A stretch of 54,400 bases of DNA, counting the filler, from Dirinaria sp. TL-2023a (Eukaryota), in NCBI GenBank assembly GCA_051941275.1. It is 4 parts of 4 records of this genome, joined end to end, with 100 filler letters (N's around TTAATTAATTAA, not from the genome) between each part and the next. Parts side by side here need not be neighbours in the genome. Positions count along the whole stretch, not along the records: positions 40,886 to 54,400 come from JAVEBF010000677.1; 3 more parts are not named here. One strand, 5' to 3'. The position numbers and the translations under genes were made by a program. Positions 1 to 54,400 of the stretch are shown in pieces (the stretch's first letter is position 1; the number at the start of each line of letters is the position of its first letter). The notes beneath the pieces are model-generated. The model did no database searches. It had not been told where the DNA came from and saw only the letters and a program-made list of their open reading frames with translations.

Positions 1-26
1 TCCTAACCTCTCCACCCCCCTCCCAG

Positions 27-428
27 CGACAACAACGCATCCCGCTCGCGGACTGGACGGCCGCCATAATCGCGACCTCGGAGGAAATCGCATCGACGAT
101 CCATGCGCAGGGACCGGGGGCGCAGCTGCCGCCGCAGGGACGGACGTTCGGGTCTCATTCTCCGGGCAGCAAGTCGTCGTCGCCGGTGGCGCTGCGCGCG
201 ACCCCCTGGTTCGGCGTCTACGGCCGCTTTTATTATCTCACGCTCAGCACAGCCGTCAGCGCCATTTGGCAGATTGTGCTCGAGTCCGAGTGCAGGACGT
301 GGAGTTTTGAGGTTATGATGGGTCAGGGCCGGGGCGTGAAGCAGGGCGCGCATGTGGGCAGTGTGGTGGTTGAGTATTATGGGCGTTCGAGGCGTTTGAG
401 TGGTGGTGGTGGGAGCGGTGTTCGATGA
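27..428 (+). CDS. Last exon of a hypothetical protein, 5'-truncated at the contig start
   Basis: Branch site CTAAC (3-7) and acceptor CAG (24-26) precede an open GC3-rich frame RQQRIPLADWTAAIIATSEEIA...RFYYLTLSTAVSAIWQIVLESECRTWSFEV...HVGSVVVEY ending in TGA at 428. Confidence 0.55.
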   Translation, partial: RQQRIPLADWTAAIIATSEEIASTIHAQGPGAQLPPQGRTFGSHSPGSKSSSPVALRATPWFGVYGRFYYLTLSTAVSAIWQIVLESECRTWSFEVMMGQGRGVKQGAHVGSVVVEYYGRSRRLSGGGGSGVR

Positions 429-625
429 CATGGTTTGCGTTGAGCGGTTCAGCGCTGGGTGACTTTTTTCTTTTGTTGAAAATAGGAGGAAATGGAAATG
501 CTGTGGTGACAACTGCATGATGAGAGCGTTGAGCATCAAATGGGGTTTTCATGAGACGGCGTTAAGACCTTGAAAATCCCTTACTCGGACATTGATACGG
601 ATATCATTATTGCAGTCCGGTGATA

Positions 626-2902
626 TTAGTCGACTCCTTCTCCACCATCGTGAACGCTCTTTTCTGCAAGGTCAATTTTCATTGGGTCGCGACCTAGTTG
701 TTCTCGACGCTCGACATCCCGATCGATCTTCCTGTAAGCCCACTCAAAAGTAGGATACAGAAAGGGTCTCAAATCGAAGCGCTGTCTCATAGTATTAGTC
801 TTATGTAACCCCCAAGAAACAAAGAAGGAAAGGATACATACATTATCATCGGGCGAGTACTGCTCCATGTGCAAACTCGGTGTCAGAACCGTCATCTTAT
901 GCCGATTGATCGCGTATTTGGTGAAGAAGAGTTTCGTCTTGTCTGCAATCTGTCGCGGACTGAGTCCTCGGCCTCCAGCTCCTCCTTCTCCTGCTTGAGG
1001 CTCCGGCTTGCCCCATGTGCTGAGCAGTTTGCAGTAGGCGCCCCACGGGCCAAGTTTGTCATTCTTCCGTGAACGGCCGAATTCGCTCAGCTCCGCGTAG
1101 GTGATGCCCATGTCTGCCTCGTCAGACTGGACATAGGAGGACGTGATAGGCTCCAGCTCTGCGGTCGGGGTAGCGGTAAGGAAGGACTCGAGAATCGGGA
1201 GGTCGAAGTTGCTCTGGGCCCATGCAATGTAGGCCTTGAGATCGGTCTTGGAGATGCCGCCGATGGGGTTGATGTCCGCGGAGCTGCAGTCGTATTTGGT
1301 GAGGTATCCTCTCAACGCTTCGTCGACGTTCGCGGAGCCGAGGACGAGCAGTGAACCTCCACCTTTCCGACGTCGGAAGGTTGGTAGTAGCTGAGCCCAT
1401 AGATATGCGAGTATCATCCGCGTTCGAGCTTGGATGTTTTGCAGTGCAAGGTTTTCGGCTACGCCTCCGCCAGAGGATTTGAATTTAGGCATCCAATTGC
1501 TCCAGCCGTAGAAGACTTTCACAATCGCTGTCGTTATGGTATCAATATCGATATTAACGTGGTAAGCGCCAATCGCTTGAGCTAGGTCCTTTGCTCGTTT
1601 CCTAGTATCGAAAGAGGAATTGCTCGATCCCATGTAAGCAGTACAGAAAATCGCACGTGCGAATTCTTCGGGTGCTCTAGGTATCCATTCCGGATCGTCA
1701 GCTTTGCCTACTACTTGCTTTGCATCATTAATAACTTGCTCGTTGCCGTCATGTATCGCTGCTACGACAAGCCGGCACATTGAGAACACTATGACCGACG
1801 TAGCACACGAATCAATTCCACCCGACAGAGGAATAAAAAAGCCCGCAGCATGAGATCTGCGTAGATAGTCCCAAAGCCAGCACGCACCACCCAGGGCGAT
1901 TTCTTCCTCAGGGGTATGATACTCAAGGTCGATAGGCTCAGAGGCGCCTTCTGTTTCGGATTCACGCTCCTCTGCACGCTTGGAAAGTCGGACGTCTAGT
2001 TCGATCCGTGGGTATTTGGGGGCTTGTTGTGATTGCATGCCTCTGCTAGGAGAGCTTCTGAACGTACGCACATCTTCAATATCTATCGTTGCAGTCACCA
2101 CTTCAACATCTGACAGTGAGAATTGGCTCCCGCAAGCCAGTATCTTGCCGTTGCAGATTATCATGCTGGAGCCGTCGTAGAAGAGCCTATCGCCGTCACA
2201 GCCTTTCTGGTTGCTATAGAGATATATGCCTCCTGACTTCTTCGTGGCTTCGATAATAAGATCCAGTCGTGTTTTTAATTTCCTCAGTTCGAAATGGCTG
2301 CCGCTCGAGTTGGTGAAGATTTCTACTCCGTCTAATCCCATCGGCCCATGCGGCGCAGCTGGAGTGAATAGCTCTTCGCAGGTCTCACAAGCAAAGCAGG
2401 TATCCTTGGTCGATATGATCCCATCGCCGAATGGTACCTTGCTCTGTCCCGTGATTGTACCTACGATGCTCTCAAGGTAGTAATCCTCGACGTGACCTTG
2501 CCTCATCCATGGAGTAAAATATCGCATCTCGCGGTAATTACCATCATTAGCCAGCCACATCTTAGGGCGTATGAGAACGATTTTGCGGTTGTAGCAGATC
2601 ACCCGGCAGTTGTATCGGACATTTTTGTGGCGAACTGGCATCCCCACATCCAGGACAATATCCTGGCAGTCAGGGTGGTCAATCACTTCCGCCAGTGATT
2701 CCCAGGAGTGGAGGAAGACATCTCCCTCGAGGAAGTGGTCGAGACATCCGTAGCCAGTCACTTCCAGTTCAGAGCCAACACGCAAAGAAGCACCGGCAGC
2801 TTTTGCTCTCTTGATGCTTTCGATAATCCGTTTTCTATTTCCAACGAAGTCTAGAGCCCACTGATTGAGCGAGCACGTCGCCAGGGTCACGAGATGCGCC
2901 AT
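626..2902 (-). CDS. QNS1: Glutamine-dependent NAD+ synthetase
   Basis: Nitrilase-like N-terminus (CSLNQWALDF, ELE/RPK/CEE catalytic triad) plus synthetase motifs SGGIDS, ENLALQNIQAR, GYLTKYDCSSADINPIG and PTAELEP. One intron at 782-841 (GTATGT..CTAAT..CAG) restores SPDDN|RFDLRPFL. Confidence 0.97.
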   Translation of the reverse strand: MAHLVTLATCSLNQWALDFVGNRKRIIESIKRAKAAGASLRVGSELEVTGYGCLDHFLEGDVFLHSWESLAEVIDHPDCQDIVLDVGMPVRHKNVRYNCRVICYNRKIVLIRPKMWLANDGNYREMRYFTPWMRQGHVEDYYLESIVGTITGQSKVPFGDGIISTKDTCFACETCEELFTPAAPHGPMGLDGVEIFTNSSGSHFELRKLKTRLDLIIEATKKSGGIYLYSNQKGCDGDRLFYDGSSMIICNGKILACGSQFSLSDVEVVTATIDIEDVRTFRSSPSRGMQSQQAPKYPRIELDVRLSKRAEERESETEGASEPIDLEYHTPEEEIALGGACWLWDYLRRSHAAGFFIPLSGGIDSCATSVIVFSMCRLVVAAIHDGNEQVINDAKQVVGKADDPEWIPRAPEEFARAIFCTAYMGSSNSSFDTRKRAKDLAQAIGAYHVNIDIDTITTAIVKVFYGWSNWMPKFKSSGGGVAENLALQNIQARTRMILAYLWAQLLPTFRRRKGGGSLLVLGSANVDEALRGYLTKYDCSSADINPIGGISKTDLKAYIAWAQSNFDLPILESFLTATPTAELEPITSSYVQSDEADMGITYAELSEFGRSRKNDKLGPWGAYCKLLSTWGKPEPQAGEGGAGGRGLSPRQIADKTKLFFTKYAINRHKMTVLTPSLHMEQYSPDDNVCILSFFVSWGLHKTNTMRQRFDLRPFLYPTFEWAYRKIDRDVERREQLGRDPMKIDLAEKSVHDGGEGVD

Positions 2903-3867
2903 TGGGGCACCGGATTAAAGCAAGGTAAAAACGGCAGCGGAAAAGGGAAGTAAAGGACGGAAGAAAACGATCCGATACCTTATACGGTACCAGACAAATC
3001 TAAGTGCAGAGAGTCCGAATGAGGGAATTAAGGCCCAAGGTACGCATCCGAGTTACGGAACCACAAAGAACATCCCTGAGACTTTCACTTGGGCACTTGG
3101 TTGCTTCATTATACAAGCTCTGCTTGATTGAATGATTCGAAGATGAATTGCGTCTGAAAAGGTAACCGGGATAAAAGCTCTGTGTACGAAATTATATCTT
3201 ATCCTCAATGCAGCAAACTGTCAAAGAATTATTGCGATAATCATAAGGTCTGATGCTGGTTTTCGGATCTCTATTACTCATCGAAGGATGAAGCACGAAT
3301 ATGGAGGATTTACTCGCTCGAATACCTTACCTATTCCTCTTGTGTATATCCTTAACCCTAAAATGGCCAAGAGGTGATAACCTACATCCGTTAGAAGATC
3401 CTTACCCATAGTAGTAGCTATTCTACAACCCGGGCCAAAAAAGGTGCTCTTTCCATAAGTGCGTCAATCAATTTCTCTCTCTCAGCATTGACCACGTGCC
3501 TGTTCGACGACGAGGGCGCTTCAAAGATAGACCAGTTCCACTGTCATATCGTGAACACGGGTTTGTCATGAATTACGAGCAGGCTTGAAATGAGCATCCA
3601 GCACGAGCACGAGCTATAATATGAGAAGTCAGTAAGGTGCCAGGCAAACCCAAGAAAGCAGAAACAATGTCACAAGGTCACTCGACTCAATTCCCAAAAT
3701 AGATAACCTGAATGGATGTATTAGACTTTTGTTGTATATGTACGCCGTTATTAATTCTAGTAGTGATTGAGCCTCTCGTATGCTCAATTATGTTCTAAAA
3801 ACCCTCTATGTCTATGTCCCGTCTAACCAAGTCCAAACTCCGTGATCAAGCAATCGTCGTCCTCCAT

Positions 3868-4355
3868 TCACAAGAAGTACGCGGTCAGAGCAGCCAAGAA
3901 AGTCCCAAGCGCGGAAGAGGTGGAGAAGATGGAGGCCGCGCCGTTCTCGAGACCGTTGCGACTCATACTGCCGGTAGCAACGGGCGGAAGTTCGTTGGAG
4001 CTCGCAGAAACCTCGCTGGTGTCCGTGGGGACCGACGCGGACCCATCCCCTGTCGCGGTCGGGGCGCTGTAGTAGTCACCCGCCGATTTCGGATCGTCAT
4101 TAGAAGCCTCTTTCAGCGCACCGACGAATCTGGGATGAATGTAAGCCTTGGGGGTTCAGCTGGTGTCGCAGGAGTGACGGACGCATCGAGCGAAGCGTTC
4201 TGACCCTGCCCAGGACTGGCTTGAGGCACTGTTGTGGGCAGATCGCGAGGAGTGTAAACGACGCCGTTGGTAACTGACGTGCCGTTGTCCGGTATAGGCG
4301 CGAGGCCGAGCACGGTGCCAGTTGCTGCCAGAATGAGAAGGTTTTGGATCTGCAT
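3868..4355 (-). CDS. Small Ser/Thr/Pro-rich secreted protein, probably GPI-anchored
   Basis: Signal peptide MQIQNLLILAATGTVLG. One ~59-nt intron (GTCGGT..CTACAG) joins exon 1 to APTATGDG...NGAASIFSTSSALGTFLAALTAYFL*, a GPI-signal-like hydrophobic tail. Confidence 0.7.
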
Positions 4356-5131
4356 GTTTGCCTTGAGAGAAATGGACCGAGGAGACTTTGAGTGCAAAGA
4401 TGGAAGAGAGCTGCAAAGAAGGCCTCACGAGATATACGATGTCCGGAGAATTAGGAGGAAAGAATTAGGAGGAAAGAGGTCTTGTTGCTATTGCAGAGTG
4501 GTCCAAGAGTAGCCTGGGGTAGCTATAATATTTGTTTGAATAAGGCAAAAGCCAAGACGCCTCTGTTGAATAGAAAATAGGCTTGTTGGACAGGATGCCC
4601 ATATCCTGGTGGAGAACGTTGCCATAGCCATTCCGAAGCCCTTTGCTCAAGGGTGGTTTATTGGGCGGAAATGATGTTATAGCCTGGCAATTAAGCCCAA
4701 AAAGGTACTACTTGCCACTCAATTGCGACTGTTCAGTATGTCTCTGCCGCGTAAGCCTTCAGATAAAGCTTGTGATACACCTATCAGTATGTTGGGAAAC
4801 TCTTCTTCCCGCCCGCCGCCCCTTCCATGTTTTGGCGCGAGGGACCCGTGGGAACAGTGGACCGGGAAGACGACGGCTTCCCTGAGCTTCCTTTGCTCAA
4901 CAAACCCTTGAATCATAAGCTCCAGTAACCCTTATAGTTATCAGGGAAAGAGTAATATATTGCTGAACCTGAATATCCAATTGGGGATGGGCTGTATGAT
5001 TTGTGGCGTTTCCGGGATAATGCTTTACTGGCTGGAGAGAGAGACCGTCAAGGGCGCACTCAGCGACAGAGAAACTATTCTGCATGTCCGACATTGCCGT
5101 TGTAGGGTGGGAGCAGTGGCCGTCGATATTC

Positions 5132-6096
5132 TTACGCGTCCTTGTAAAGCCTCTTGACTTCGGCCACTAAGTCTTTAGGTTCGGTCCCGCCATCACAGCC
5201 CTTCCACGCCGCCCCGTCACGAACGCACCACTTTTTCCCTGCTACTCTGACTGTACAACTTCGCTTCACATCGGCATCTTCGCTGCGCTCCACACTTGCG
5301 CGAAGTAAATCCAAACCCTTGCCCTCCTCGCTCACACAGCTGTTCAGGGCTTCGAATGCAATGCCGTGCTCCAAAGCACAATTCTCGACAAGATCGCGCT
5401 CTGGTATACGGGAGTAGGAGAGTACGAGACACGTAGTAAAGCCAAGGGAAACCACCGTGTTGTTTGGGAAAAGGTCCTTGGCGCACAATGAGAGCATGTT
5501 CCCTAAGCATTCCGTAGGTCCGTGTTTGCAGCCAATTGTATCGTCTGGCTCAATTCTGTATTTGTGACGTACATTAGCAACCAGGAATATTCTGTTCGGA
5601 GTTCTTTACGTCTACAAAACGCTCCGGTGAGAATCGGGATAACCGCAAAGCGCATTGCAGTGCGCTGCCCGACCCAATTACCATCGGCCACTTACTTCCC
5701 AATAAATGAAAGATTGAAGGCCACCATGTCAACAACCTGCTCCATTGCAGGCACCACAAGATCTCTGAGGCAGTCCCGTGCGTCAGGACACTTGGACATT
5801 ATGTGAGCTTCAAGTGGGACGAGTCCGGAGCTATTCGATGTTGACGATATTGCCTTCTGCGCCTGATCAACTAAATGATATGGTTGATGCTTGATGACTG
5901 AAGCTCTTGCAAGAGTTCGTTTGTCGTATGTCATATGGGTGAAGAGGAGCCATATTACGAGAAGCGTTGGAAAGGCGACAAGAGAGAGGCGGCGTGTCCG
6001 AGAGAGTCTGGATCCTGACATTTTGCTTTGATGTTCCCAATGTTGTGAATACTGCTCGTCGGCTGCCCAGAGCTCTTGCTTCTCGTTCCTTGACAT
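5132..6096 (-). CDS. GILT-family (gamma-interferon-inducible lysosomal thiol reductase-like) protein with an N-terminal membrane anchor
   Basis: Motifs VPLEAHIMSKCPDARDC and CKHGPTECLGN, plus SCTVRV..WCVRDG..W. Intron at 5556-5695. Confidence 0.88.
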
Positions 6097-6470
6097 GTGT
6101 ATGGTTGCTACTCCGTACAGTCCGTGGTCACATTGAACGCAGCGAAGTGTGGCTAAAGTAAGGTAGATTCGGTAAGGTGTGTACCCTGACACAACCCTAC
6201 TCTAATCGTCGAGCGTCCAATAAGTCCGATTATATCCGTCTTAACTCCGTTTATCATATTCGTCTCTAAGAGGAAGGATTGATCGACTGTGGATTAATAA
6301 TCGCTGATGTTCTTCCAGTGACAGCGGAATCAAGGCCGATAGGCGCAATTATCATTCTACGTATAAGTATATGAGCATTTGCTCTAATCATATATGAAGC
6401 CTCAATTGGTTAAACCTTTTCAGTCACAGAAGTCACGGACAAGAAATACAAAGACAGAGACAAGGCAAAG

Positions 6471-7439
6471 ATGCAGGACCACGCACTGATAGGGAAAGCC
6501 AAGGACATACCAACCACCGTACCTACTTCTGTTGTCTCGATCGGTCCAGTGGTATTATCTGTTCCAGGACGAGTCGTTGATTTGCACCTACGAGTTTCCG
6601 CCCCGACAAGTGGGCGCGATCTACCCATAATTCTTCTCTCGCATGGCCAGGGATTCTCAAACCATCTGTCTTCCATGAATGGCTACGCGCCTCTTGTCGA
6701 TTTCTGGGCCTCTCACGGCTTCGTCGTAATCCAGCCAACCCATTTGAGTTCAAAGTCGCTAAGCCTCGATCCGAAGACTCCCGGAGCGCCTGTGTTCTGG
6801 AGGTCGCGCGTGGAGGACATGAAGCAGATCCTCGATCAGCTCGACCGGATTGAAGCTTATCTCCCAGAGATCCAAGGCCGCCTCGACCGAAGCCGGATCA
6901 CTGTAGCGGGACACTCCATGGGTGGACATACGGCAAGTATGTTATTAGGCATGCGCCTTACCGACCCCGAAGACGGGACAATAGTAGACCTGGCCGAACC
7001 TCGCATAAAAGCCGGGGTACTGTTCGGAGCACCCGGTAGTGGTGGTGCCGATCTCAGCGCTTTCACGACAGAGAACTACCCCTTTTTCCGGCATCCCAGC
7101 TTTGCAGAGATGACGACGCCAGCCCTTGTAGTCGCGGGCGACAGCGACGTGAATCCACGTCTGACCGTTCGAGGGGCGGACTGGCATGTAACTCCCTATT
7201 CTCTCAGCCCCGGCCCCAAATCTTTGCTCACTTTGGTCGGCGGAAAACACGGGCTCGGCGGTATTTCTGGATATGATGTGGCTGAGACGACAGACGAGAG
7301 CCCCGAACGAGTGGCTGTCGTCCAGCGGCTTACCTGGGCTTACCTCCGCAGTATCCTCGATCATAAAGACTCCGCTTGGTCTGCAGCATGTAGGGCATTC
7401 GAAGGTCTCGGTGAAATTGGACGCGTGGAAAACAAATGA
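6471..7439 (+). CDS. Alpha/beta hydrolase, chlorophyllase/PAF-acetylhydrolase-like
   Basis: Intronless 322-aa ORF with SHG oxyanion segment, GHSMGG nucleophile, GDSD acid and HGLGG histidine motif. Confidence 0.88.
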   Translation: MQDHALIGKAKDIPTTVPTSVVSIGPVVLSVPGRVVDLHLRVSAPTSGRDLPIILLSHGQGFSNHLSSMNGYAPLVDFWASHGFVVIQPTHLSSKSLSLDPKTPGAPVFWRSRVEDMKQILDQLDRIEAYLPEIQGRLDRSRITVAGHSMGGHTASMLLGMRLTDPEDGTIVDLAEPRIKAGVLFGAPGSGGADLSAFTTENYPFFRHPSFAEMTTPALVVAGDSDVNPRLTVRGADWHVTPYSLSPGPKSLLTLVGGKHGLGGISGYDVAETTDESPERVAVVQRLTWAYLRSILDHKDSAWSAACRAFEGLGEIGRVENK

Positions 7440-8045
7440 AATATAAGCTGGCAGGCCTTTGGAGGGAAGCTGGCTCGTCTAGACAATAACACGAATGCCT
7501 CCCAAACCAAAAGGAGAACAGTAGATTGAGTCCTACCGTACCAATGCGGTGTCAGGCTTTGGGGAGTGACAAATAATCCCGCGACAGGATAGCTGTTCTG
7601 ATACATTGTCTTGCATCACATGTAGACCGTGAACAAATACGCTGATGAGCTGCTGATGACCCTCTGGCCACACGCACTGTTGCATGCTGGAGTGGAGATG
7701 GTCTCGATGGTCTCTCGAGACCCGCAAATCTTATCGACGGTTCTCGGTAGAATAGGCCGGGCCGGGTGCCGCTCCGACCTGGAAAAGCAGCCAAAGGGAT
7801 ACTCTTCACTTTTAGTTATCAAGTATTGGACTCAAGTGAACACCCATTGTCAGAGATTATTTACTAAACAGTAGGGACTATCTGGCCAAGTTTTTATCTA
7901 CAGCAGGATCGCACTTGGTATATACAGAGAATATCGATAGAAATTAAAGTTTTGCCTCCTTTTTGACCCCCCCTTTTTTTAAAACCCCCCTGCTATGCGA
8001 GCATTTTCATACTCTCCCATGTCATCATATCAAATGGTTCCTTCA

Positions 8046-11000
8046 TCAAGCTTCCTCATCGCTCTCATTCTCCGCTACATCGTCATGAAAAGTCTTGCCT
8101 TCCGTAGTCGGTTTGATCATGCCGCAGCGGATCGTGAAGTCGCCAAAATGTTCGCCTTCCTTCCTCTCCAAAGCATATCGCTTGATTAAGGGTTTCATGA
8201 TACCCAATATCTCCTCTTCGCCGATGGAACTGCGGTACAGTTTATTGAGGCGCTGGCCGTGGTAGCCACCTCCCAGATACATGTTGTACGCCTGGTAAGC
8301 TTTGCCGACGAAGGCGACTTCGGCCAGCCATGGCCTCGCGCAGCCGTTCGGGCAGCCCGTCATCCGCATCACGATGCTGTCGTGCTTCAAGCCATTCTCC
8401 TCGAGGCAATCTTCGAGCTTGGTGATCAGCTCGGGCAGATACCGTTCCGATTCCGCCATTGCGAGACCGCAGGTGGGGAACGCCACACAGGCGGACGAGC
8501 TTAAGCGCAGGCCGGAGAACTGCACGTTGTCAAGCTTGTACTTCTTCATCATACCCTTGATGTCATCTAGATCATCGTCATGGACACTTGACAAGCAAAG
8601 ATGCTGGTTCGGCGTCAATCGGAACTCTCCTTTGTGCACCTTGGCGATCTCGCGTAGACCTGTCTTCATTGGGAACTCGGCCGTGTCTTCCACTCGACCG
8701 TTCTCGATGAAGAAGGTGAAGTGATTCATCCCATTTTCATCTTTCTGCCAGCCAAATGTATCTATGTTTGACTTGAATTGGAACGGTCTTGGCTCCTCGA
8801 AGTTGTAGCCCAGGAGTTCCTCAACTTTCCCTCTGAAGACATCAACGCCCATGTCGTCGATAGTGTATTTTAGACGAGCATGCTTGCGGTCCTTGCGGTC
8901 ACCATTATCGCGCTGAACCAGCATGATCTTCTCACATACAATGTGGATCCGGTCGGCGGAAGCGTAGCCCATCATGCTTCCTGTGCGAGGGTAGGTCTTT
9001 TTATTGTTGTGAGTGGCACCCATGCCGCCCCCAACCAATACATTGAAGCCTTGCAGGCGGTTGTTGGCGCCCTTGATGGCGATCAGACCTATATCATGTG
9101 CATATACATCTGTGTCATTGTGAGGTGGAACAGCAATAGTGATCTTGAACTTCCTCGGAAGATATGTCGGTCCATAGAGAGGTTCTTGATCAACTACAGC
9201 GTTACCGGCGACCTGCGTCTGCTTCTCGTTTTCATCCTTCAGCCATATCTCGTGGTAGGCCGTCGTAGAAGGCAGAAGATGATCGCTAATCTTAGCTGAG
9301 ATTTGGTGCACGTCACGGTGGAAGGCCGATTGTGTCGGTAGAACACTGCACATGATGTTGCGATTAACATCACCGCAAGCAGCAATAGTTGTCATAAGGG
9401 CTTTGTTGATACCCCTCATCGCGGACTTCAGCTTCGTCTTTACCACACCATGGAACTGGAAGGTCTGGCGAGTGGTCATTTTCATCGTACCGTTGCCATA
9501 GGAGCTGCTGATTGAGTCCATTTGTAACCACTGAGACGGAGTCGCCACACCACCGTTGAGTCTGCATCGAATCATGAAAATGTACGCAGGCTCCAAACCC
9601 TGGGCCTTGCGCTCATCTCGAAGATCCCGGTCGTCTTGCTGATACGTACCATGAAATTTCGTGAGCTGCTGATCAGAGGCGGCAATTGCTCCGGTCGTTG
9701 TATCTTGAAGCCCCTCAGCAATGGTACCTCGCAGAAAGTTTGACTGGATTTTGATGTCCTCATTCGTAATCGGTGCTGGCTCTTCCGGAAGCCCTTCAAC
9801 TTTGTCAACGCCAAGCGCTTGCCACAAGTTCGGCTCCCACTCGTTATAGCCTGTATGATAATTGTCTGGATCCTGATCGTCGCCAAGACCAATTTCGGTC
9901 AATCGCTTACCTCCCAAGAAAGCCACTCTTGAGTCTAAGTCTTTTCCCGGCTTGTTGTAATAGATCTTGTCTTCCTTCCGTGGCCAGTAGTGGCTATCAC
10001 CAAGCGCAAATACGGCGAATTTGATCTGCGAAAGGTCTATCTCCGCATTCGACTTGATCGCCTCCCAAAACCCGCGTCCATTCTGAGGGATTTCCCCCTG
10101 CCCAGCAGTACTGGTGATCAGCACGACATTCTCCTCCGTCGCAAGGTCCTCCATTGGGTAGTCATCCATTGCCATAACCATAGTCTTGAGCCCCCTAGCT
10201 TTACCTCTTCGCCCTAACCTCTGAGCAAGACTTTCCGCATTACCATTATCTGAAGCAAACAAGATTGTCAACGGAGCTCCGTAGAGACTCTCGAGCATTT
10301 TCTCGTATGCGTTCTTAGCTTTCCGCTTCTGCAGAGCGCGCACTTCAGTGCCAAACGACCCTGATAGATTCGCCGAGAGGTCGGGATGTCTGTTCATTAG
10401 CTGGGTCAACAGGTTGTCACGTTTTAGAAAATCCTCAAGCTCGTGCTTGATACGCTCCGAGTCCAGGGAGAAGTTTGGCTGGCCCTTGTCCTCGTTAAAC
10501 GGATTCCATCGGTATAAAGGCCAATACCCTAGATCCACTGCCTTCTTAGTTTCCTGCAACACCGTTAAAGGCGAATCGTCTTCTTGATTGTACGGGAGAT
10601 ACGCCACGACCACCGATGGTCCTTGGAACCGGTCGGCTTCGATCATAGCCTCCAGTACCTGCGTGTACGAACTATAGACAGCCACTGATGCCACATAGGC
10701 ATTACCAAAATTCATAGCGTAAAGTCCGATGTCCTTCTTCCTCCTTGTAGCGTCAGCCGCCGCTCGTTCTGAGTATGGCTGAGAATCGATGATCAGCATG
10801 TTGATATTGGCACCTGAAGCCAAAACATGGTGAACGCCTGAGTTGCCTAGATCGTATGCCCAAGCGTCCGAGCCTATCAACCATTGAGATTCATGATAGA
10901 AAAGCCCTCTAGTTGATAGAAGCTGTGAAGATAGAGGCGAGCCATCAGCACTCAGCCGTGCAATTACTTCGGGAGCAAGATTGTTTGCCTTGCTTGGATC

Positions 11001-12738
11001 TTCCGCGTTCAAGGCCCACTTCGAAAGCCAACTTTGGGGGACATCTGTTACAAAGTTCCGAGTTTTCGCGGCGTCTTGTACTTCGCTCACAAAACGTTTA
11101 CGATGCTCTATCCTTGCCAGAAGCGACCCAAACCCAAACTCCGGATTCGCAGCCAAGGATGATGAGATACCTGCGTTGGCCGCATCAAGTTGATTTGCGA
11201 GATATAGCCGCTGACCAAATACTTGATCGAGTATCTTCATATATGCATTCTCTACTTTGGGTTGCTCTAGCCTATACTGATCTTTGGATGTGTCGGGTGG
11301 TACTTGGTTGCCAACCTCGAGGTTCTGAATCGGGGATGGAGACTTTAGATTCTGAAAAATCCCGCGAAGAGCTTGCCGAGCAGTTGCTGGTTCTATATAT
11401 CCGAGCTGGTGGCCAACAATCGCAGGCGCATCTCGTTGAGATGGTGCAGTCCTCAGACTTGTCAAGATGTCCAGAAGTACAGGTCCCCACTTGGTCGTCT
11501 TCCTACGGACTTGCTCCAGTACAGCAATCTTTTTGATCGAAGGAGGGATGACCTCAGCGAGTCTGGCACTTAGCCACGGTCTGTAGAGGCGAGCAGTGAC
11601 AATGCCGCATTTGGCAAATTCGTCAGAGGGGTTAGCTTCTAATATTTCATCCACAAATACACCTGTAGATCCAAATACAAACAGGGCACATTCAGCATCG
11701 GTTGGACCTGAATACTCAAACGCTTGATATTTTCGGCCAGTAGCTGCTGCTATATCGTTCCATATCCCAACAACAAAATCGTAGATATCCTCGGAAGTGA
11801 TGGCGCGTGTAGTGGTGGAGTTTACAGAAGTGGCGGAAGAGAGCGATGGTCTGCTGTCAGAGCTGCCGCTGTCCTCGCGGGCTGACGAAGAATTGGACGA
11901 TTCATCCCCAGTTGCACGCTGTGAAGGCACTGGGCTGGGATAGGAGCGTTTGCCAGTGTTCGGATCTTGTTCGTGTCCCAAGCCATTTATGCCAGTTTCT
12001 GTAACCGTTGGGTGGTTTCTTTCGTCGACATATATCGAACCATCCTCTTGACTCGCATGCGACCGCGCAGCTGGAGCATTCAAGATGCCTCTGACAAATT
12101 CTTTGTCTTCGCCCTGAATCGGGTCATCGTCGACCGAATTCGCTGGATCAAAGAAGTGGATGATGCCTTTTCCAGATCTTATGGCCAATGCATGTGCTGA
12201 AAGCGCTATATCCTGCGCTTCTTGCAATGTCTCGGATTGCAGGAAGACGAAGCCTGACTGCCGTATGGCGGTTATTTCGGAGTAATCTGGATGGTGTGGT
12301 GGATGTAGAGCGACATGCAAGACGATCGGATACTGGGCTAATTTGTATAAGTGAGGTATAGATGTAAGCAGGATTGAAGAATATGTGGTAACAGAGACGA
12401 ATTGGCCGGACCGCAAAGGTTGGAAGGCAGATAATAGGGGGTCTGCATTGTGCTTCAGAGCTTGCACCTTCCAAGACCGGTCAGCCGGTCCCGAGTACAT
12501 GTAGAGCGACGCTTACTTCAGGTTCTTTGGTAACCAATCCGGGGGATTTCCGTGCAGCGAGTGCTCGCAGCTGTTTCGAAAATATCGAGTCTACGCCCAG
12601 CGCAGGCTGTACAGATAGAACAAGATCACTGGAGAGGTATGCGACTCTTGCCACTATTAACGTCGTTAGCACTATGAGCTCGCCACGAAAGTCTGCGAAA
12701 GACATACCTGCATCTGCAGCGCTCAGAATGGTGGACAT
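8046..12738 (-). CDS. MET5: Sulfite reductase (NADPH) beta/hemoprotein subunit
   Basis: PFOR-like region (GSDAWAYDLG), flavodoxin (FASDNGNAE, TSTAGQGE, ALGDSHY), KFHGTYQQDDRD, LPRKFK and siroheme/4Fe-4S motifs CVAFPTC and GCPNGC. Introns at 12654-12707 and 12468-12516; ATG at 12738. Confidence 0.96.
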
Positions 12739-13190
12739 TGTCGTATTCCTCAAATCAATGAAGAATATCTGGTCGAGCAGAGAAGGCTTTTTGAGGGAAT
12801 CTCAATGGCAAGCCATCTTACAAAGCGTCTGACAACATAAAAAACATAAAAATCAGTATCCAATAATTGACAAGCGGGCAAATGATTTTGTCATGAGAGC
12901 ATTTGCGCCTTGATGATTGGCCATTGGCGGCGCCGAGGCCGGCGTTGAGCACGCAATGCGCACCCAGCAAACTTAGGGTTTCTGTTTATCGATAAGCTTG
13001 CATTACCGAGATGCGAACACTAGGGCTTTTCAAAACCTAACAAAGTAGAGAACGAGTATAGGATGCGGGCGCTGAGTAAAAGATACACTGGCGATGGCAT
13101 TGCAGTTACCACAAGCTAGTGTACTTCTCCCTTTTTAACTTCCACCGTGCAAAAGGTATTCGGGACCAAGAGCCAGCTCAACCTCTCAAT

Positions 13191-13543
13191 ATGGCATCAA
13201 CCAAGCAAAAGATGCCGAGAGGCTCCAAGCCATCGAAAGACATTCAATATGACCGTATAAGTAGGTATATCTGGAAAGCGCAAAGCTTGACGATAAATCC
13301 ACCTGATCTCTAGTACGCCCGAAAGCACTGACGAAGATTCCTAGCCGACCCACGCTTCACCAACATACAAACCGATCCTCGCTTTCGCCTCCCTTCTCGC
13401 AGAAATACCCATGTTCGCCTCGATTCGCGCTTCGCGCACATGCTGCGCAGCGATGACTTCTCTAGCAAAGCGAAGGTAGACCGTTATGGTAGAAAGTTGC
13501 CCAAGGACGCCGGGAGGAAAGAGCTGGAGAGGTATTACAGGAT
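13191..13543 (+). CDS. ESF1: Pre-rRNA processing protein ESF1, N-terminal part, truncated by the contig end
   Basis: After an intron at 13261-13344 the frame reads TDPRFTNIQTDPRFRLP...DSRFAHML..DDF..KAKVDRYGRK, which matches the ESF1 N-terminus. Confidence 0.85.
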
Positions 13544-42411: not shown

Positions 42412-43777
42412 TCAGGCGCTAGCGGTGTTGAACCACGGGTGCTGCAGCACCGCAACTGCCGCAAGCCTGGAAGCAGACTCGAATCGTACGAGCTGGCTCA
42501 CCAGGTCTCTAGCCTCGTCAGAAGCGTCCGGTAGAAGCTGTGCCCACGGCTTGGCGTCATACTGCTTGAATCCGAATTTGCCCCAGGCGTCGTAATTGCG
42601 AGCCTCCTATAGTTCCTAGTTAGCAAGACTTTTTATGAGTTGCAATTTACTCACGGGCCATGTCTCATTGTTAGGTGTCCCAAGCGTGGTAAAATGACTG
42701 TGGATCAATGCTAGCTCACTGCCCATATCTCCACAGTTGAACAGCTCCCCCGTGCCTAGCACCTCCGCAACCACACAGCCAGCGGCCCACAGATCTAAGG
42801 CGCAGCCATAAGCTTTGTAGCCGAACAGTAATTCTGGCGGACGGTAGCAAGTCGTACCCACATCGGTAATCTTCTCGTTGGGTGGTTCGGATGCTGGATC
42901 ACCAGCCATCCAGGAGATACCAAAGTCAGCTAGATAGGCTGGACCAGCTGGTGATGCTAGAAGAATATTCGATGGCTTGATGTCGCGATGAATAATGCCT
43001 TGAGCATGGACATGGGCCAGAGCGGAGAAAAGCGACTTCAAATGAGAGCGCGCCTGGTTCTTGAAGATAACGTTCTTCCTGACGGAAAGTGGAGCGCTAT
43101 CGAGCAGGGTACCGAGGTCATGAGATAGAAAAGGGAAGACGAGGACAAAATGCGCGCCCGGAAGTGAGAATGTTGATATCAGACGCACCACCGATACGTG
43201 GGTTCCCGCAGCCAGAATTCGAGCTTCACGACGAGGGTCATGCGGTGGCTGAGCTTGGGAAGGTTTGGTGAGCTTCAAAGCGATGACTGAGTTTGTACTT
43301 GGATCATGAGCTTTGTAGACAGTCGAGAAGATACCCGAGGCGTGGTACGTTGCCTGATACACGCCAATCTGCTCGGTTGGATGAGAGGAATAACCTTGAG
43401 TATGTGGCAGATAGGCTTCGGGCGGAACATTTGGGGTCACAGGAATGATGGCTCCTAGTTTTGCTTCTAGCTCTTGGTCGTAATCTTCCTGGAACGTATT
43501 CAGCTAGAATTAAAGGAAGTGAATTGTTTGAAGCTGAAAGGATCTACCTCTGAGTTGGCATTGTTGTAGACTTGGAGCTCGAAGCGTAGAGCTTCGGCTC
43601 GGGCCTTAGCTAGATCCCCAACTTGATAGGTATTGTTAAGAAGCTCAGTGCTGAAACATATGAGTAACTTCAATTTCCTTGAACAAAGCCGGGGCTGGTG
43701 GATGCTTGCATTTGATTGATTCTATCAACGCGGTCTGCGAAGCTTATCTGCCCTCTCCAAGAGGCTCCGTCAGACAT
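42412..43777 (-). CDS. CAK1: CDK-activating kinase (Cak1/Csk1-like) with an N-terminal KIX-like extension
   Basis: Degenerate Gly loop (HASGIFSTVYK), PPHD..RE, HRDIKPSNILL, DFG and DVGTTCYRPPELLFG. Introns at 43651-43709 (GC-AG), 43489-43547 and 42607-42654. Confidence 0.8.
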
Positions 43778-44324: not shown

Positions 44325-47237
44325 ATGGATCTCTCACGGCAGGAGTATCCGGCACTGCTTGTGAGTTACTTGACCAATCTAGCGATACTTTGCTGACCTT
44401 GCCGAAAGCGTGAGCTCCAACCTTCTCAGGCTGTCGCAGTCCTCGAAGACCGTGTCAAATTGATTGGCAAGGTCAACAATGACATTGCCGACTTTCTCAC
44501 CGTATTGCCAGACCTATATTGCACACATGGAAAGTGACTGACGAGTGTCGCAGGAGCGGCGGAAAGTGGAAGAAGCCTATGCGACTGGACTGAGAAAGCT
44601 TGCGGGCAGGAATCCTCTTCAAGGATCTTCCGAGCTTGGGTATGAAATTCAAAGCTGCTTTTCGGCGGGAGAGGCTGATGATTAGCAAAAGCATTTTCCA
44701 AACACCATGGCAGAGCATCATAAGTTCCACAGAAGCAGTCTCACAATCGCATCAAATACTCGCGCAGAAGATCGAAACAGACGTGGAGCGACCACTGCGG
44801 GAATACCACACGAAGAATAGAGAAATGCAGGCCATCAGTACCATACAGGGCAATCTGGCCGCAATAGCGCGCGATGTGGATTCAGCTCGGAAGAAGGCTG
44901 ATAGAGCCCAAGGCGGGAAAACTTCTGCTAACAAATCCGCCAACGCTGCTTCTGACGTGGAACATGCGAATCAGCAATGGGACTCGCAGGCGCCTTATGT
45001 CTTCGAGCAGTTACAGGCGCTTGACGAAAGCCGAGTCGACCACCTGCGTAACGTACTCACTCAATTCCAGACCCACGAGGCCGAACTGGTGAGTCGCAAC
45101 CAGGTGTCTACGGAGAGCTGTCTCAATGCCATACTGAATGTCAACACCGCCGATGAGATATCGACGTTTGTTGCACGGAGGGCAGCGGGCGCGCCAACGA
45201 TGCTCCCTCGGCCAAAGAGCCGCAGTGCGTCAGGCCAACCTCCCCCCGCCCAATCTACGCCGCCAATACCCCGGCGAGGAGGTTCTTCCAACGAGCGCAG
45301 TTCTGCTACAGATGCCTCGGGAAGCGCTGCTAGGGCGAGGTCAAGTTCCGGTCCTGGAACTGAAGCTCCACTGCCAGAGACGCCACGACGTCCGAGCGGA
45401 TTTGCTGGGTTAAAGCGTTTGGGGACCGTGATAGGGCGCAGGAAAGATAAGAAGGGCGAGCGCCCACCGTCCCCAGAAAAACGAACAAGGTCAAATCTGA
45501 ATCCATTAAGAAGAGGACAGAGCTCGAAAGACATGCAAGCGATACCATCTCCAGATACATCTACACTGAATCTTCCCTCTGTATCACCGCGCCAAGAACC
45601 TCCAATGCCACAAACCACTGCAGTGTCAACATCTCAGGAACCCCCTCGCTCGCCTACTGAACAACGTCGCATGAACGACCAGTTGAATGGCGATACCATC
45701 TCTCCTGCTCCTAGGCGGACCTCAAGTCTACCTCGTACCAACGGGGTACCGAACAACCGAGAACTATCTGAATCGGACGAAATACCACCCGTTCCTTCGC
45801 TTCCAAAACCAGCAGAGGTTAGTGCGGGTTTACAGTCGGATAGTTTTAATTCTGACGTAAACAGGAGAAACGCGATAGCGACGGGTTTAACGTTCAGCCA
45901 TCAGCTACCGATCCCATCACCCGTGCCCAGCAAGAGGCTACTACCATCAGGTACGTAATTCAACGTGGAACGGCTTGTATTCATGGCCTGAGTTAACCTA
46001 TTATGCCAGTGACAACGACGCCCCCCAATTTAAGCTTGACATACGAGACGAGCCTATACGGGAGGAAGGTGATGCGTTATCTGCTATGTCTAATGTCGCA
46101 AATACCCTCAGAGCAGTAAGTACCACTTTGTATTTATACCTGAACCCCCATGATAACACTTAGCAGCAAGGAGTTACGCCGCGTAAAGTAAGTGGAAATC
46201 GAGGTCGACGAGATGTCCGAAACACCATCTTCGTCCCCACACCTCAAGCTTCTGAAGCTGGAGGGGGAGGAGAATCCTCAATTTCCATACCTTCGCCCTT
46301 TGCACCCAGATCGGGACCTCTATCTACAGAGGCTCCTCACTCGTCAGATGCGCACTCGATTCGATCGGCTCATTCTCTCAGTAGCCTGATGCCTGTGGGA
46401 ATGAAACACCCCGAGATGAGTCAGCTCGGTCTCAATGCATCCATTGTCGAGACTGTTAGTGCTTGGTTTTCAGACGGCCAAGTAACAAAAGCGGTCGTCA
46501 TCGGTGAGCTGGCTTTAGTGTATAATGTCGGCGAAACTGCACCAGCGACAGAATCAGAGAGCATCAGACTTGAAAATTTTCCTGTCCTCGAAAAGGTTGC
46601 TCCAAATCCCAGTTTCGTTAACCAGGCGCCTTCGAGATCTGGCGAGTACAGCATCAATTTATCCCAGATACCTCGGACTTCAGTGGCGTTCAAATATCAA
46701 GTACACCTAGAGGAGGCGACATTGAACAGCCATGCCCCGGTCACACTCTCTCCGGGCTGGAAAGTCGAGCCAACGCAGACCTCGGTGATACTCAATTACA
46801 GCTTCAACCCGTCATTCGCGTCAGCTTCTGGAAGAAGTGTCTCATTGAAGAACGTCGTGATATTGATCAACGTGGAGGATACCAAGGCACAGAGCTGCAT
46901 GTCGAAGCCACGGGGTGCCTTTTACAAAGAGAAATCCATGATTGTTTGGAGAGTGGGCGACATCACCCTGGATGGCTACGCAGCAGGCCCACAGAAACTG
47001 ATTGCCCGCTTCAGCACCGACTCCGAGGCCAAACCTGGCACCGTTGAGATGCGGTGGGAAATCGACGGCGACGCTGCGTCGGGACTGGGAAGTGGTCTTG
47101 GTCTGAGCCAGAACGCCAGAGAAGAAGGTGGCTCCGACCCTTTTGCGGACGAGGGCAATGCCTTGTCAGCGACCATGTCATGGAAAGAAGTGCCAGTGAC
47201 GAGGAAGATCACCAGTGGAAAGTACATAGCCGTCTAA
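44325..47237 (+). CDS. SYP1: Muniscin endocytic adaptor (FCH/F-BAR plus mu-homology domain), multi-exon
   Basis: MDLSRQEYPALL, ERRKVEEAY..GLRKL, WDSQAPYVFEQLQALDE, and a C-terminal MHD (GLNASIVETVSAWF, LENFPVLEKVAPN) ending SGKY. Confidence 0.88.
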
Positions 47238-48205
47238 GGGTGGCCCTTTGGTCGCCTGCGAGAGTCTCCAATTTTCAATGTACTGTATTTACCTATGGCA
47301 GCGCGACACAGCAAGCGTCAGAGTGTGAACTGCCGATCATCTCTGAATTTGTTGGAGCACGCGCTCATGCTATCTCGCCCTCAGACAATGCCGTGCCGGA
47401 GCCGGCTACAATTGCCTGAATCTCCATGCCAAGCCGCCACAGCATCGTGAAACCCTTTTTTCTCTCATTTGGCAACAGCATTTGGTGCATTCTGCGGTCT
47501 CATGTGCGTCGATGGGAAGTGGTTCTGCATTCCTGCTGCATAATGTTGTTTTGCCTATTGCCAAGATCGCAAGGATGGTGAGAGACTGTTAATATACGGA
47601 GTACTGGGATATTGTCCCCATGCTCTCTCTTATCAAAGCGCATGGTCAACACTACCGAGTACTAAGGTACCGGTAGTTTCAGATAATTAGTAGAAGTACT
47701 TGGCTCCTAATTTCCAGCATTCCACCTCCTTTTTCTGATTGGTGTTGATAGCCGACTCGAACTGCGGCCGGCGTGAAATAGGAGGCTCGGCTTAATTTCG
47801 GCGCAAGAGTAGGCTAAACTAAAGGCGCAGGGTTTTTTGACCCGCGGGTCGCCCTGCCAGAGAGAAACCCCCTTCAATCAGTTCAATTCAATCTCTTCCT
47901 TTTCCACCTTCAACCACGACGTCCGCCTGAGCTGCCCGCACCTGTCACTCCTTAGAGCATTCATTTTGCATCTTACCACAATTTGCTGCTCGTCGCCCTT
48001 CTTTTACCGGCGATCAGCAATTGTGTTCATTCATTTACTACGCACTAATATTCCGTCTTGTTTACTCTACATTCCTACCCAGTGAACTCGCCAGCAACAA
48101 AAATCACCCACGGAAGGCAGGCTTCGACACCTCCATGAATAGGTGCCTGTTTGCCTAATCATTTTCTCTCAATCCCGCGATCATTCCTGGAGAGATCGCC
48201 CAGCG

Positions 48206-50303
48206 ATGGCTCACCATGCCCACGCCCACCATCAACACCTTCGAGATGGTCGCCGCGTCCGGAACGCGCAACAGGAAGTTAGAAGGCAGGTGACCGAGTA
48301 CAGTGTCGTCTATGTGACCGCTTCGAAGACCTTCAATGGCCCAGTTGGTGGATACAAAACAATGGATGGCTCTGATGAAGAACATACTCCCCCGAAGCAG
48401 AGCGCCGCACCTGCAAAAGCCGCTTTATCTCCAGCAGAGGCAGCACCGCCGGTGATAATACAGTCAACTCCGAAGGCTGTCCCATTGCCTTCCCCAGAAA
48501 CGCAACCTGCCCCTGCTCCTGCTCCTGTTGCGCAGCCCCAAACCACACAGCAGCAACAACAGCCACAACCAGTCGAAACCAGGGCAAGCCCCACACTCGC
48601 CAAAGCTTCCAAAGCTCGTGCGACTTCCCAAATCCCTGCGCCAGTTGCGTCTGCAAGTCATAGTCATAGGAAAGCAGACAGCTCTGCACACAAGACTCTT
48701 AGCAAGACACTTAGCGAGACACTTGTCCCAGCCCACCCTGCAAAGTCATCATCACCTACTAGCCTGCACGAGCCGACGGCCGTATCTTCAGTCAATGCAC
48801 AACCTGCGGGAGCTTCATCAGCAGCGAGCTCAACCCCTTCCAAATCGTCTTCGCCAGGTGGTATGTCTGGCGGAGCGAAAGCGGGTTTGGCCATTGGAAT
48901 ACTTCTTGCCATTGCCGCTGTAGCAGGCCTGATATTCTTCTGCTTCCGTCGTAGACGAGACTATCGCAATGAAGCGTATAGCAAGACTGCTGACGAGAAA
49001 GCCGGCTTCGCCTCTGAAGGTGCTGCAGGTGGTCTCGCCCGCTCAGCAAGTGTCCAGACCTCAACCACCTCGGCGACCGCACCTCGTCTAAGTCTTCGGC
49101 CTGTCACACAATTTCTTCCGGACCTTGCTGCGCAGAGGAAGAGTGGAAATCTTCTCAATGCGCCGGCCAGCCAGCCTCGAGCGAACCCACCGACTTCGAA
49201 TGGCGCCATGACTGGGAAAGACGCTCCCGAGAGTTACTCCAAAGAATCTGTGAATCCATTTGGTAATGACGCAGAAATGTCCGAGAAACTTCCCATCCAG
49301 AGCAACACTGAGGACCCTGCAAATCCTTTCGGCATTGCTGCAGAGACCTCCCGTCAACTCACTAGCGGCAGCGCAGAACCCGATGTTGTTCCTCCTGCCC
49401 CTTTGCGGATCCGGACACCAACTCCAGATGGGAAGAGCGTAGCGGCTGGCTTTGGTACTGGGATTGCCACTGCAGGTGTTGCGTCAGCTGTTGCAAATGA
49501 AAACCGTCATGCTCCCAAGCCGCTCAACCTCTCCCCCAGCCGATCTGCTTCTCCCGCTATGCAAGACCGTGATATGCCCAGTCCGGCGGGCACTGAGTTC
49601 AGTATGACGCCTGTGTCCCCCGGGAGCTTCACCAATGGCCCACCACCGAGCAACGTGCACCGGATCCAACTGGACTTCAAGCCATCCATGGATGACGAAT
49701 TGGAACTTCGCGCTGGCCAGCTCGTTCGACTTTTGCACGAGTACGATGACGGATGGGTAAGTCACGTGAACAGAGTGCTAGCGATACTGTATGCTAATCT
49801 AAATGTAGGCACTATGTATCCGTCTGGACCGCTCTCAGCAGGGTGTTGCCCCACGTACTTGCCTCTCAGCTAGGCCCGTAAAGCCACGTCCTCCACCAGG
49901 CGCGCGGGGCCCGGCTCCACGAGGACCTCCACCTCCAGGTATGTTCCCTGGTCAACAACGACCAGCATCACCAGCGAACGGCCGTGGCTCCCCCAGCCCT
50001 TTTCCTCAGGCACTGAGGCCGGGCCCACCCAATCCTGCGCCTTACCAGCGATCAATGTCACCAGGCCCGTACGGCGGTGGACCTCAGCGGCCTACTATCC
50101 CACCACCGGGAGGCAAGGCACGAAGCAACTCTGCTAGCGCAGTACGCGACCGGAGAAATAGCCCCCCCGGACCAAGTCCTATGAATCCCAATGTGCAGCG
50201 TGTGCCAATGCATCTTCAAGCCGTCACTGCTCCTGGTCAAGTGCTATCACAATCGCCGCCACAAAGTGTCGCCAGGAAACCTGTTCCAGGTCAGGCAATG
50301 TAA
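48206..50303 (+). CDS. Single-pass membrane protein with a Ser/Pro-rich ectodomain and cytoplasmic SH3 domain (Fus1-like architecture)
   Basis: TM GGAKAGLAIGILLAIAAVAGLIFFCFRRR and SH3 VHRIQLDFKPSMDDELEL...HEYDDGW|ALCIRLDRSQQGVAPRTCLS. Intron at 49757-49808. Confidence 0.87.
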
Positions 50304-53547: not shown

Positions 53548-54400
53548 TCAACTTCCCGAATCTTTCAAATGTTCTTCCTGCTTTCCGTTCCTCGTCTCTA
53601 TTTCCCTTTTCTCCACAGCGATCCTCATCGCCTCATCAAGCCCACTCACGGCCCTCAAAAGCCTCTGGATACCGACCGGCAAAACCCCCATCCACGCAAT
53701 CATGTTCGCATACGCAGGCATCCTCACCTCGCCCGCTTCGCCCCGGTCAATCATGTCCACAATCTTCACCGCCAACTCCCGCACCTCGACGCGCGGGCCC
53801 CAGAAATTCCGCACCGCGTTCTGCCTCACGCCCGCGAACAGCGGCGTATCGAGCTGTCCCGGCGCGACGAGGATGGTCCTGATATTGTTGGGGGGATAGG
53901 CGGAGGAGCGGAGTTCGGCGGTCAGGGAGGCGTGGAAGGTGGATAGGGCGGCTTTGGTGGCGGTGTAGGCGGTCAGGTGGGATGCGCCGAGCGAGGCGAG
54001 CACCGAGGAGCAGGTTATGATCGTGCCTCCTGCGGCGCGGGAGAGGAGTGGTGGGAGGAAGAGGGAGGTGAGGTGCATGTGTGCGATGAGATTGGTGCGG
54101 ACGATCCTGTTAGCCTCGGTTGTCAGCGATGCAGATACGCCCTTTCTTCCTATACGATGGCAGCGAAGATGTATATGAAACGCCTATGTGCGCAAATGAA
54201 AGAGGGGAGGGAAGAGAGAAACGCTATACCGCTCCACTTCCTCCATATCCAAATCCAAAAACCGTTCCGCGCCCACCGTCGCCGCGCAATTGACCAGCAC
54301 AGTCGGCGTGCCCACCTCCTGCTCCACTCGCCTCCACACCCTCTCCAATCCCTCCCTGTCCGCAACATCACACCTATAACACCTCGCCACCCCTTCCCCC
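53548..54400 (-). CDS. Short-chain dehydrogenase/reductase (retinol dehydrogenase/Tda5-like), 5'-truncated
   Basis: CDVAD, LVNCAA, catalytic Ser and YTATK, and PGQLDTPLF. One intron near 54107-54228. Confidence 0.88.

Follow-up and report, generated by a model that had tools for sequence, protein, structure and literature searches.

The monomeric CDK-activating kinases (CAKs) of fungi, represented by Cak1 of S. cerevisiae, Csk1 of S. pombe, An-Cak1 of A. nidulans (AN0699) and FgCak1 of F. graminearum (FGSG_04947), are CDK-like kinases that have neither a glycine-rich loop nor a PSTAIRE motif. Cak1 and Csk1 are not known to have a GxGxxG motif, PSTAIRE, a phospho-site equivalent to T160 or an N-terminal domain. 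To our knowledge, monomeric CAKs have been treated as bare, unregulated kinases. Yeast Cak1 is described as a monomeric kinase (PMC8819839), An-Cak1 is listed together with S. pombe csk1 (PMC3591445), and further CAK literature is available (PMC11297931; PMC12691695). Deletion of the orthologue impairs growth in A. nidulans (PMC3591445), a species for which both tagged and deleted strains are available (PMC3944740; PMC3591445), and in F. graminearum (PMC4470668).

The KIX domain of Med15/Gal11 (PF16987; PDB 2k0n and 4d7x) is the closest described counterpart of the N-terminal domain that we report here on a monomeric CAK, with which it has in common its sequence profile, its three-helix fold and both of its intron positions. 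The KIX domains of CBP/p300 (PF02172) and RECQL5 have the same fold with a weaker sequence match, RECQL5 providing a precedent for a KIX domain on an enzyme. The Med15 protein of M. oryzae keeps its KIX (PMC11633134). The passages shown from a review of KIX domains mention no kinase as a host (PMC3936767), and a phrase in the Discussion of the KIXBASE paper mentions MED15-related KIX domains accompanied by protein kinase or kinase-like domains, naming no organism, kinase family or function, although the supplements may list KIX-Cak1 proteins (PMC5668377). The word KIX occurs zero times in the searched passages of the An-Cak1 and FgCak1 papers (PMC3944740; PMC3591445; PMC4470668), and a literature search, with most subscription journals outside its reach, returned no paper on a KIX domain in Cak1.

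Results

We analysed a stretch of 54,400 nucleotides from Dirinaria sp. (the window), which is made up of contigs joined by runs of N; positions 1-13543 are contig C674 of the genome and the kinase gene, hereafter CAK1, lies on contig C677, and genes on either side of a run of N are not neighbours. Dirinaria CAK1 is on the minus strand and has four exons and three introns, the whole protein being 399 residues long. Exon 1 (43710..43777, 68 nt) contains the start codon, the conserved tryptophan and most of KIX helix 1, and is followed by intron 1 (43651..43709, 59 nt, phase 2), which has a non-canonical GC donor (GC-AG). Exon 2 (43548..43650, 103 nt) encodes the end of helix 1 and helix 2, and is separated by intron 2 (43489..43547, 59 nt, GT-AG, phase 0) from exon 3 (42655..43488), which encodes helix 3 (to approximately 43444), followed by about 25 residues of variable linker and, from approximately 43368, the kinase domain. 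Intron 3 (42607..42654, 48 nt, GT-AG) precedes exon 4 (42412..42606), which holds the end of the kinase C-lobe and the stop codon. The whole KIX domain (43444..43777, approximately residues 7-71), comprising a short N-terminal helix and a three-helix bundle, is therefore spread over three exons, with helix 3 in exon 3, and the Cak1/Csk1-type CDK-like kinase domain covers 42430..43368. Since the kinase reading frame (43503-42616) has no ATG ahead of the catalytic core, position 43440 being a GTG, the upstream exons are needed. A preliminary description of this DNA had placed two upstream exons in frame with the kinase, and splicing them yields its 71 residues letter for letter.

Transcript evidence was drawn from three RNA runs, all from one sample of one study and mostly 95-99% alike to the window. 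Contig X1 covers 43547-43607 of exon 2 and skips the 59 nt of intron 2 at 43487/43547, with CT..AC ends and 61 letters on the shorter side. Intron 3 is joined in contigs X2 and X3 at 42606/42656, and this junction is also present in the public gene model P0001. The splice junctions that the preliminary description wished to see confirmed are thus borne out by RNA for intron 2, and exon 1 and intron 1 have no covering contig among the three runs, which tells nothing either way. Extra RNA joints were observed inside exon 3, at 43272-43335, 42794-42858 and 42669-42736, with only 27-30 letters on one side; those of 62 and 63 nt have CT..AC ends (GT-AG on the strand of the gene) and that of 66 nt has other ends. 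These joints may be cryptic splicing, introns of a relative or artefacts.

For intron 1 we turned to comparison with orthologues. When scored with a profile built from eight orthologues, the window being left out, the splice model of the preliminary description ranked best of 10 enumerated, at 37.0 versus 27.3 bits. Of the 80 loci from a metagenome scan, we took 19 to be CAK1; five without upstream DNA were left out and 14 were kept. In all 14 related loci (approximately eight distinct sequences), the best model, chosen for each among several hundred to 2,400 splice models, places intron 1 behind the same AT, in phase 2, and intron 2 in phase 0. The intron 1 donor is GC in 12 of these loci and GT in the other two, and exon 2 is 103 nt long in 13. 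The profile for the 14-locus comparison includes part of the window's protein, so that the 10-model ranking is the non-circular test for the window. The two loci with a GT donor fix the position of the GC donor, and comparison with related loci supports the view that intron 1 of Dirinaria CAK1 is real. Loci L003, L007-L010 and L012-L015 have one extra intron, absent from Dirinaria CAK1, in the linker that connects KIX helix 3 to the kinase.

The unusual donor has consequences for public annotation. Gene model P0001 (Dirinaria sp., 99% identical) represents the same gene, with other residues instead of exon 1 and without helix 1, and we rejected its start, which is unlike the N-termini of the orthologues. 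By eye, the first 12 residues of P0001 seem to be drawn from two tiny exons, 44115-44101 and 44031-44012 on the minus strand, the real exon 1 being skipped. A complete KIX is found in only one of 35 chosen named models from lichen fungi and a piece of it in 21, and in nine public proteins the GC donor is read through as K/Q/N-M-Q. Because the donor is a conserved GC, many CAK1 gene models of lichen fungi are truncated or broken. The domain, which the preliminary description called hidden, is so in these lichen models but not in Eurotiomycetes, where Pfam already marks KIX_2; automatic annotation places PF16987 on 57 of 120 proteins in one orthologue listing (counted by eye) and on three of 120 in another. 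The KIX-Cak1 pairing is therefore already partly in automatic annotation, and the new elements are the predicted docking and the introns in common with Med15. The RNA joints, the related loci and the separate Med15 gene described below led us to reject two alternatives, a chimeric gene model and a Med15 start that has been displaced.

The product of Dirinaria CAK1 is a monomeric CDK-activating kinase of the Cak1/Csk1 type, the only one in this fungus, and bears a KIX domain at its N-terminus. Its kinase has no GxGxxG loop, no PSTAIRE and no threonine at the CDK2 T160 register, and its VALK-type lysine, HRD and DFG motifs are intact, as read from a table of eight family members and an alignment to a CDK2-like kinase. 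The gene is single-copy in the genome, the next paralogue being 37% identical, and on the basis of motifs we take separate kinases of this genome to be Cdk7, Cdk8, Cdk9, Ctk1, Pho85 and Cdk11. A Cdk7/Kin28 identity was rejected, since the kinase is without a glycine-rich loop and a gene with GEGTYA, presumably Cdk7-like from its motifs, is located on contig C410 (locus L085). Med15 identity was likewise rejected: what comes after the KIX is a short linker and then a kinase, and the Med15 orthologue is separate, on contig C170. In contrast to the stand-alone kinase domain of the yeast enzymes, the proteins of Dirinaria and A. nidulans have a variant architecture, An-Cak1 (AN0699) carrying the same N-terminal KIX, and orthology is unaffected by this. 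In keeping with the Cak1-type kinase of the preliminary description, Dirinaria CAK1 is 47% identical to A. nidulans AN0699 (cak1) over 390 columns (E 1e-121), and the last residues of the stored AN0699 sequence agree with the published C-terminus of An-Cak1 (PMC3944740). The Cak1/Csk1 assignment is based on orthology with AN0699 and on motifs.

That the N-terminal region is a KIX domain, as first proposed from a residue pattern, was examined by profile searches and structure prediction, and KIX proteins come top in both sequence and fold searches. All nine PDB matches (E up to 10) of a profile of 26 orthologous N-termini are KIX proteins, led by Med15 of C. glabrata (E 1.6e-8) and including yeast Gal11 (E 0.0019) and plant Med15a, with weaker matches to CBP (E 0.009-0.06) and p300 (E 0.81); RECQL5 is absent from these matches. 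Pfam KIX_2 (PF16987) matches 23 of the 26 aligned N-termini at E<=0.1 (best 2.9e-8). Its cut-off of 25.6 bits is reached in at least two of 50 whole proteins scanned, P0051 (30.5) and P0084 (25.6), and is not reached by the window's model lacking exon 1 (21.0); unspliced exon pieces give a weak KIX_2 hint (E 0.076). An AlphaFold2 model of the P0051 N-terminus (pLDDT 85.8) has helices at residues 13-30, 36-53 and 57-74, and among 48,161 chains (VIA) is closest to the Gal11 KIX (2k0n), with Z 10.8 and an rmsd of 1.6 A over 72 aligned residues, although Z values under approximately 13 are common for helical bundles and fold scores alone are weak. The KIX domains of CBP and RECQL5 follow Gal11 in this search, RECQL5 in Pol II complexes ranking third and fourth (Z 9.3 and 8.7). 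With the same KIX model as query, every one of the first 20 rows in Foldseek is a KIX protein, and none has E<=0.001. Sequence and predicted fold agree on KIX identity.

Conservation within the domain centres on the shared core motif, W3, R12, A39, E43, S52 and Y56 (An-Cak1 numbering), plus F9, with R12 and E43 invariant in the alignment rows covering them. The KIX is less conserved than the kinase (0.55 versus 0.64-0.73), and the mean top-residue frequency in the linker is 0.29. Several searches were uninformative: the KIX region alone (P0051 residues 1-82) as a homologue query recovered only itself among 59 candidates, the method being too insensitive here; PF16987 returned no candidates from the Dirinaria genome and missed this gene itself; and in the cluster atlas the whole protein led to kinase clusters only and the KIX part to nothing usable. 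A search of 50% clusters gave 37 matches, comprising seven KIX-kinases, Med15-like and multi-KIX proteins, short fragments and a few unrelated proteins. Three or four tandem KIX domains are present in P0234, P0236, P0237, P0241, P0242, P0246, P0249, P0252 and P0259, with a C-terminal SOCS box in addition in P0242. Overall, we regard the KIX domain and its fusion to the Cak1 kinase as virtually certain to be real.

The preliminary description related the domain to MED15/Gal11 by residue pattern, and gene structure makes this link stronger. A full-length Med15 query located the separate Med15 gene of Dirinaria on contig C170, a match to a short Med15 fragment having been rejected as spurious. 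The Med15 KIX is predicted to be interrupted by GT-AG introns at distances of 50 and 153 nt of spliced sequence from the W codon, in phases 2 and 0, with a 103-nt exon between them, and the offsets and phases of introns 1 and 2 of Dirinaria CAK1 are identical to these, its exon 2 having the length of the Med15 middle exon. The Med15 splice model, which was predicted from sequence in one genome and is without RNA support, was the best of 1176 at 53.3 versus 46.2 bits, with a profile built from five other Med15-like proteins only. A gap-free alignment of the two KIX domains extends over 66 residues, 17 of them identical (26%). Because two introns match to the base, a copy of Med15 exons at the DNA level is the best explanation, and the KIX of CAK1 very probably arose in this way; the direction from Med15 to CAK1 follows from taking the Med15 KIX to be the older and more widespread form.

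Orthologues carrying the same N-terminal extension, for which the preliminary description had proposed a survey, are spread through filamentous ascomycetes from Tuber to Aspergillus and Dothideomycetes. Named carriers are found in Aspergillus, Penicillium, Onygenales, Geoglossum, lichen fungi, Trichodelitschia, Westerdykella and Tuber. A second homologue search found a complete KIX in 104 of 113 new proteins and a partial KIX in the other nine. There is no sordariomycete or leotiomycete name among the orthologues listed, which does not show absence, and yeasts were outside the reach of the survey. This distribution suggests that the KIX-Cak1 fusion originated early in Pezizomycotina.

The full-length AlphaFold2 model of An-Cak1 has a pLDDT of 81-98 in the KIX and of approximately 57-61 in the linker, with a pTM of 0.91. 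We computed that misplacing a 70-residue domain by 10-30 A would limit pTM to 0.86-0.81 even with a perfect kinase. Because 0.91 exceeds this ceiling, the model places the KIX on the kinase with confidence, and we consider it probable that the KIX is docked on its own kinase domain, judging from a single summary score of a single AlphaFold2 run, made with the orthologue from A. nidulans, in which the contact surface is not visible. Covariation between KIX and kinase was noise (60 rows kept of the 80 passing a strict motif filter; effective number 34). The fold search with the full-length model aligned the kinase only (residues 88-395) and does not show KIX placement; Foldseek with this model returned cyclin-bound CDK structures first, which we did not count as evidence.

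Several other genes in the window were noted. A Syp1/FCHo-type gene (BAR-like part and muHD; 44326-47237, plus strand) begins approximately 550 bp upstream of the kinase start, head-to-head with CAK1, and this divergent pair is present in 12 of the 19 related loci, the other seven having fewer than 900 bases upstream. The spacer may act as a bidirectional promoter that has been conserved. A gene for a haem-dependent N-demethylase-like protein (PF11927; 40834-42126, plus strand) converges on the 3′ end of CAK1 and is also the neighbour in locus L001. On the other side are a membrane protein gene (48143-50303, plus strand) with an SH3-like domain at its C-terminus that scores below the Pfam cut-off, presumably Fus1-like, a Mad1 spindle-checkpoint gene (PF05557; 51011-53232, plus strand), approximately 7 kb from CAK1, and a short-chain dehydrogenase gene (53548-54183, minus strand). 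The source of the kinase orthologue P0113 gives it the name 'mad1', which may stem from a model that is neighbouring or fused.

Discussion

The gene structures, sequence matches and models can be brought together in a scheme in which the Med15/Gal11 KIX exons would have been duplicated at the DNA level and fused to CAK1 early in Pezizomycotina. The encoded KIX is predicted to fold as a three-helix domain and to pack back on its own kinase domain, in which position it would be a built-in accessory module, steadying the cyclin-free kinase and/or forming a docking surface for target CDKs or a regulator. The kinase itself would, by orthology, phosphorylate CDK T-loops, for example that of Cdc2/NimX. 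In this setting the Cak1 KIX differs from its Med15 relative, since it resides on a kinase of about 400 residues with no glutamine-rich region or other Mediator domain and is predicted to pack on its host domain. We give a probability of about 0.5 to the reading that the main role of the docked KIX is to regulate or aim CAK rather than to recruit activators. A need in principle for a built-in activator is argued against by yeast Cak1 and S. pombe Csk1, which work as monomers and are not known to have a KIX.

Published locations and partners are in better agreement with a cell-cycle role than with one at promoters. An-Cak1 occurs throughout the cell, and no protein other than An-Cak1 itself was listed from its purification (PMC3944740). 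FgCak1, which may or may not carry a KIX, is cytoplasmic and interacts with Cdc2A/B in two-hybrid and co-IP experiments (PMC4470668). Against the docked role, An-Cak1 is not excluded from nuclei (PMC3944740).

The preliminary description had instead proposed that the KIX keeps a Med15-like task, binding the activation domains of transcription factors and so bringing CAK to promoters, where Cdk7, Cdk9 and Ctk1 would be its targets. Descent from the Med15 KIX, which binds Zn2Cys6 activators in fungi (PMC11633134; PMC3936767), speaks for this, as do cited titles reporting that Cak1 acts on Kin28 and Bur1 and Csk1 on Cdk9, and the access of An-Cak1 to nuclei, unlike yeast Cak1 (PMC3944740); a docked KIX can, moreover, still expose its groove. 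However, it has gained no support so far, given the An-Cak1 purification with itself as the only entry, the cytoplasmic FgCak1-GFP (with the same reservation over its KIX) and a model that docks the KIX on the kinase. The genome also has a separate KIX-bearing Med15, and KIX conservation is centred on the shared core motif plus F9, so that we find recruitment by activators improbable as the main role. Similar low odds attach to a flexibly tethered KIX that binds a cytoplasmic partner in trans, such as a cyclin helix, an inhibitor or a scaffold, the predicted packing then being an artefact. The variable and poorly predicted linker (0.29; pLDDT approximately 57-61) would suit such a tether, and known KIX domains are docking modules acting in trans (PMC3936767), but the pTM of 0.91 lies above the ceiling for a floating domain and no partner co-purified with An-Cak1 (PMC3944740).

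Two further readings are very unlikely. Binding of RNA polymerase II in the manner of the RECQL5 KIX, which would couple CAK to elongation, is suggested by the rank of RECQL5 in Pol II complexes in the fold search (in which TFIIS domain II has Z 7.1), but sequence and introns point to Med15 and not to RECQL5, the An-Cak1 purification listed no Pol II subunit (PMC3944740), and the cytoplasmic location of FgCak1, subject to the proviso above, is equally unfavourable (PMC4470668). That the KIX is carried along harmlessly, or merely aids solubility or stability as a tag, might be argued from the monomeric CAKs of yeasts, which are not known to have one, and from its conservation below that of the kinase. 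Against this, it has been retained in fungi as far apart as Tuber and Aspergillus and in lichen fungi and Dothideomycetes, it is present in full in 104 and in part in the other nine of the 113 new proteins, and R12 and E43 are invariant in the rows covering them.

An extension of the preferred reading, in which the KIX is docked and regulates or aims CAK, is more speculative and on balance doubtful: the Med15 exon block on CAK1 may now be a cyclin-like activator or substrate-docking subunit clamped on the kinase, with a remaining groove that may let activator-like helices switch CAK. If this were true, the KIX groove would link the state of transcription factors to CDK activation.

With this gene, a kinase would join the known KIX hosts, which are CBP/p300, Med15, RECQL5 and plant proteins, and the shared introns make the fusion a clear case in which exons of a Mediator gene have been shuffled into another gene. 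Since deleting the CAK1 orthologue impairs growth, a fungus-specific KIX could be an antifungal target. A folded, conserved domain on the CAK of filamentous fungi is a concrete handle for the regulation of this kinase, testable in A. nidulans.
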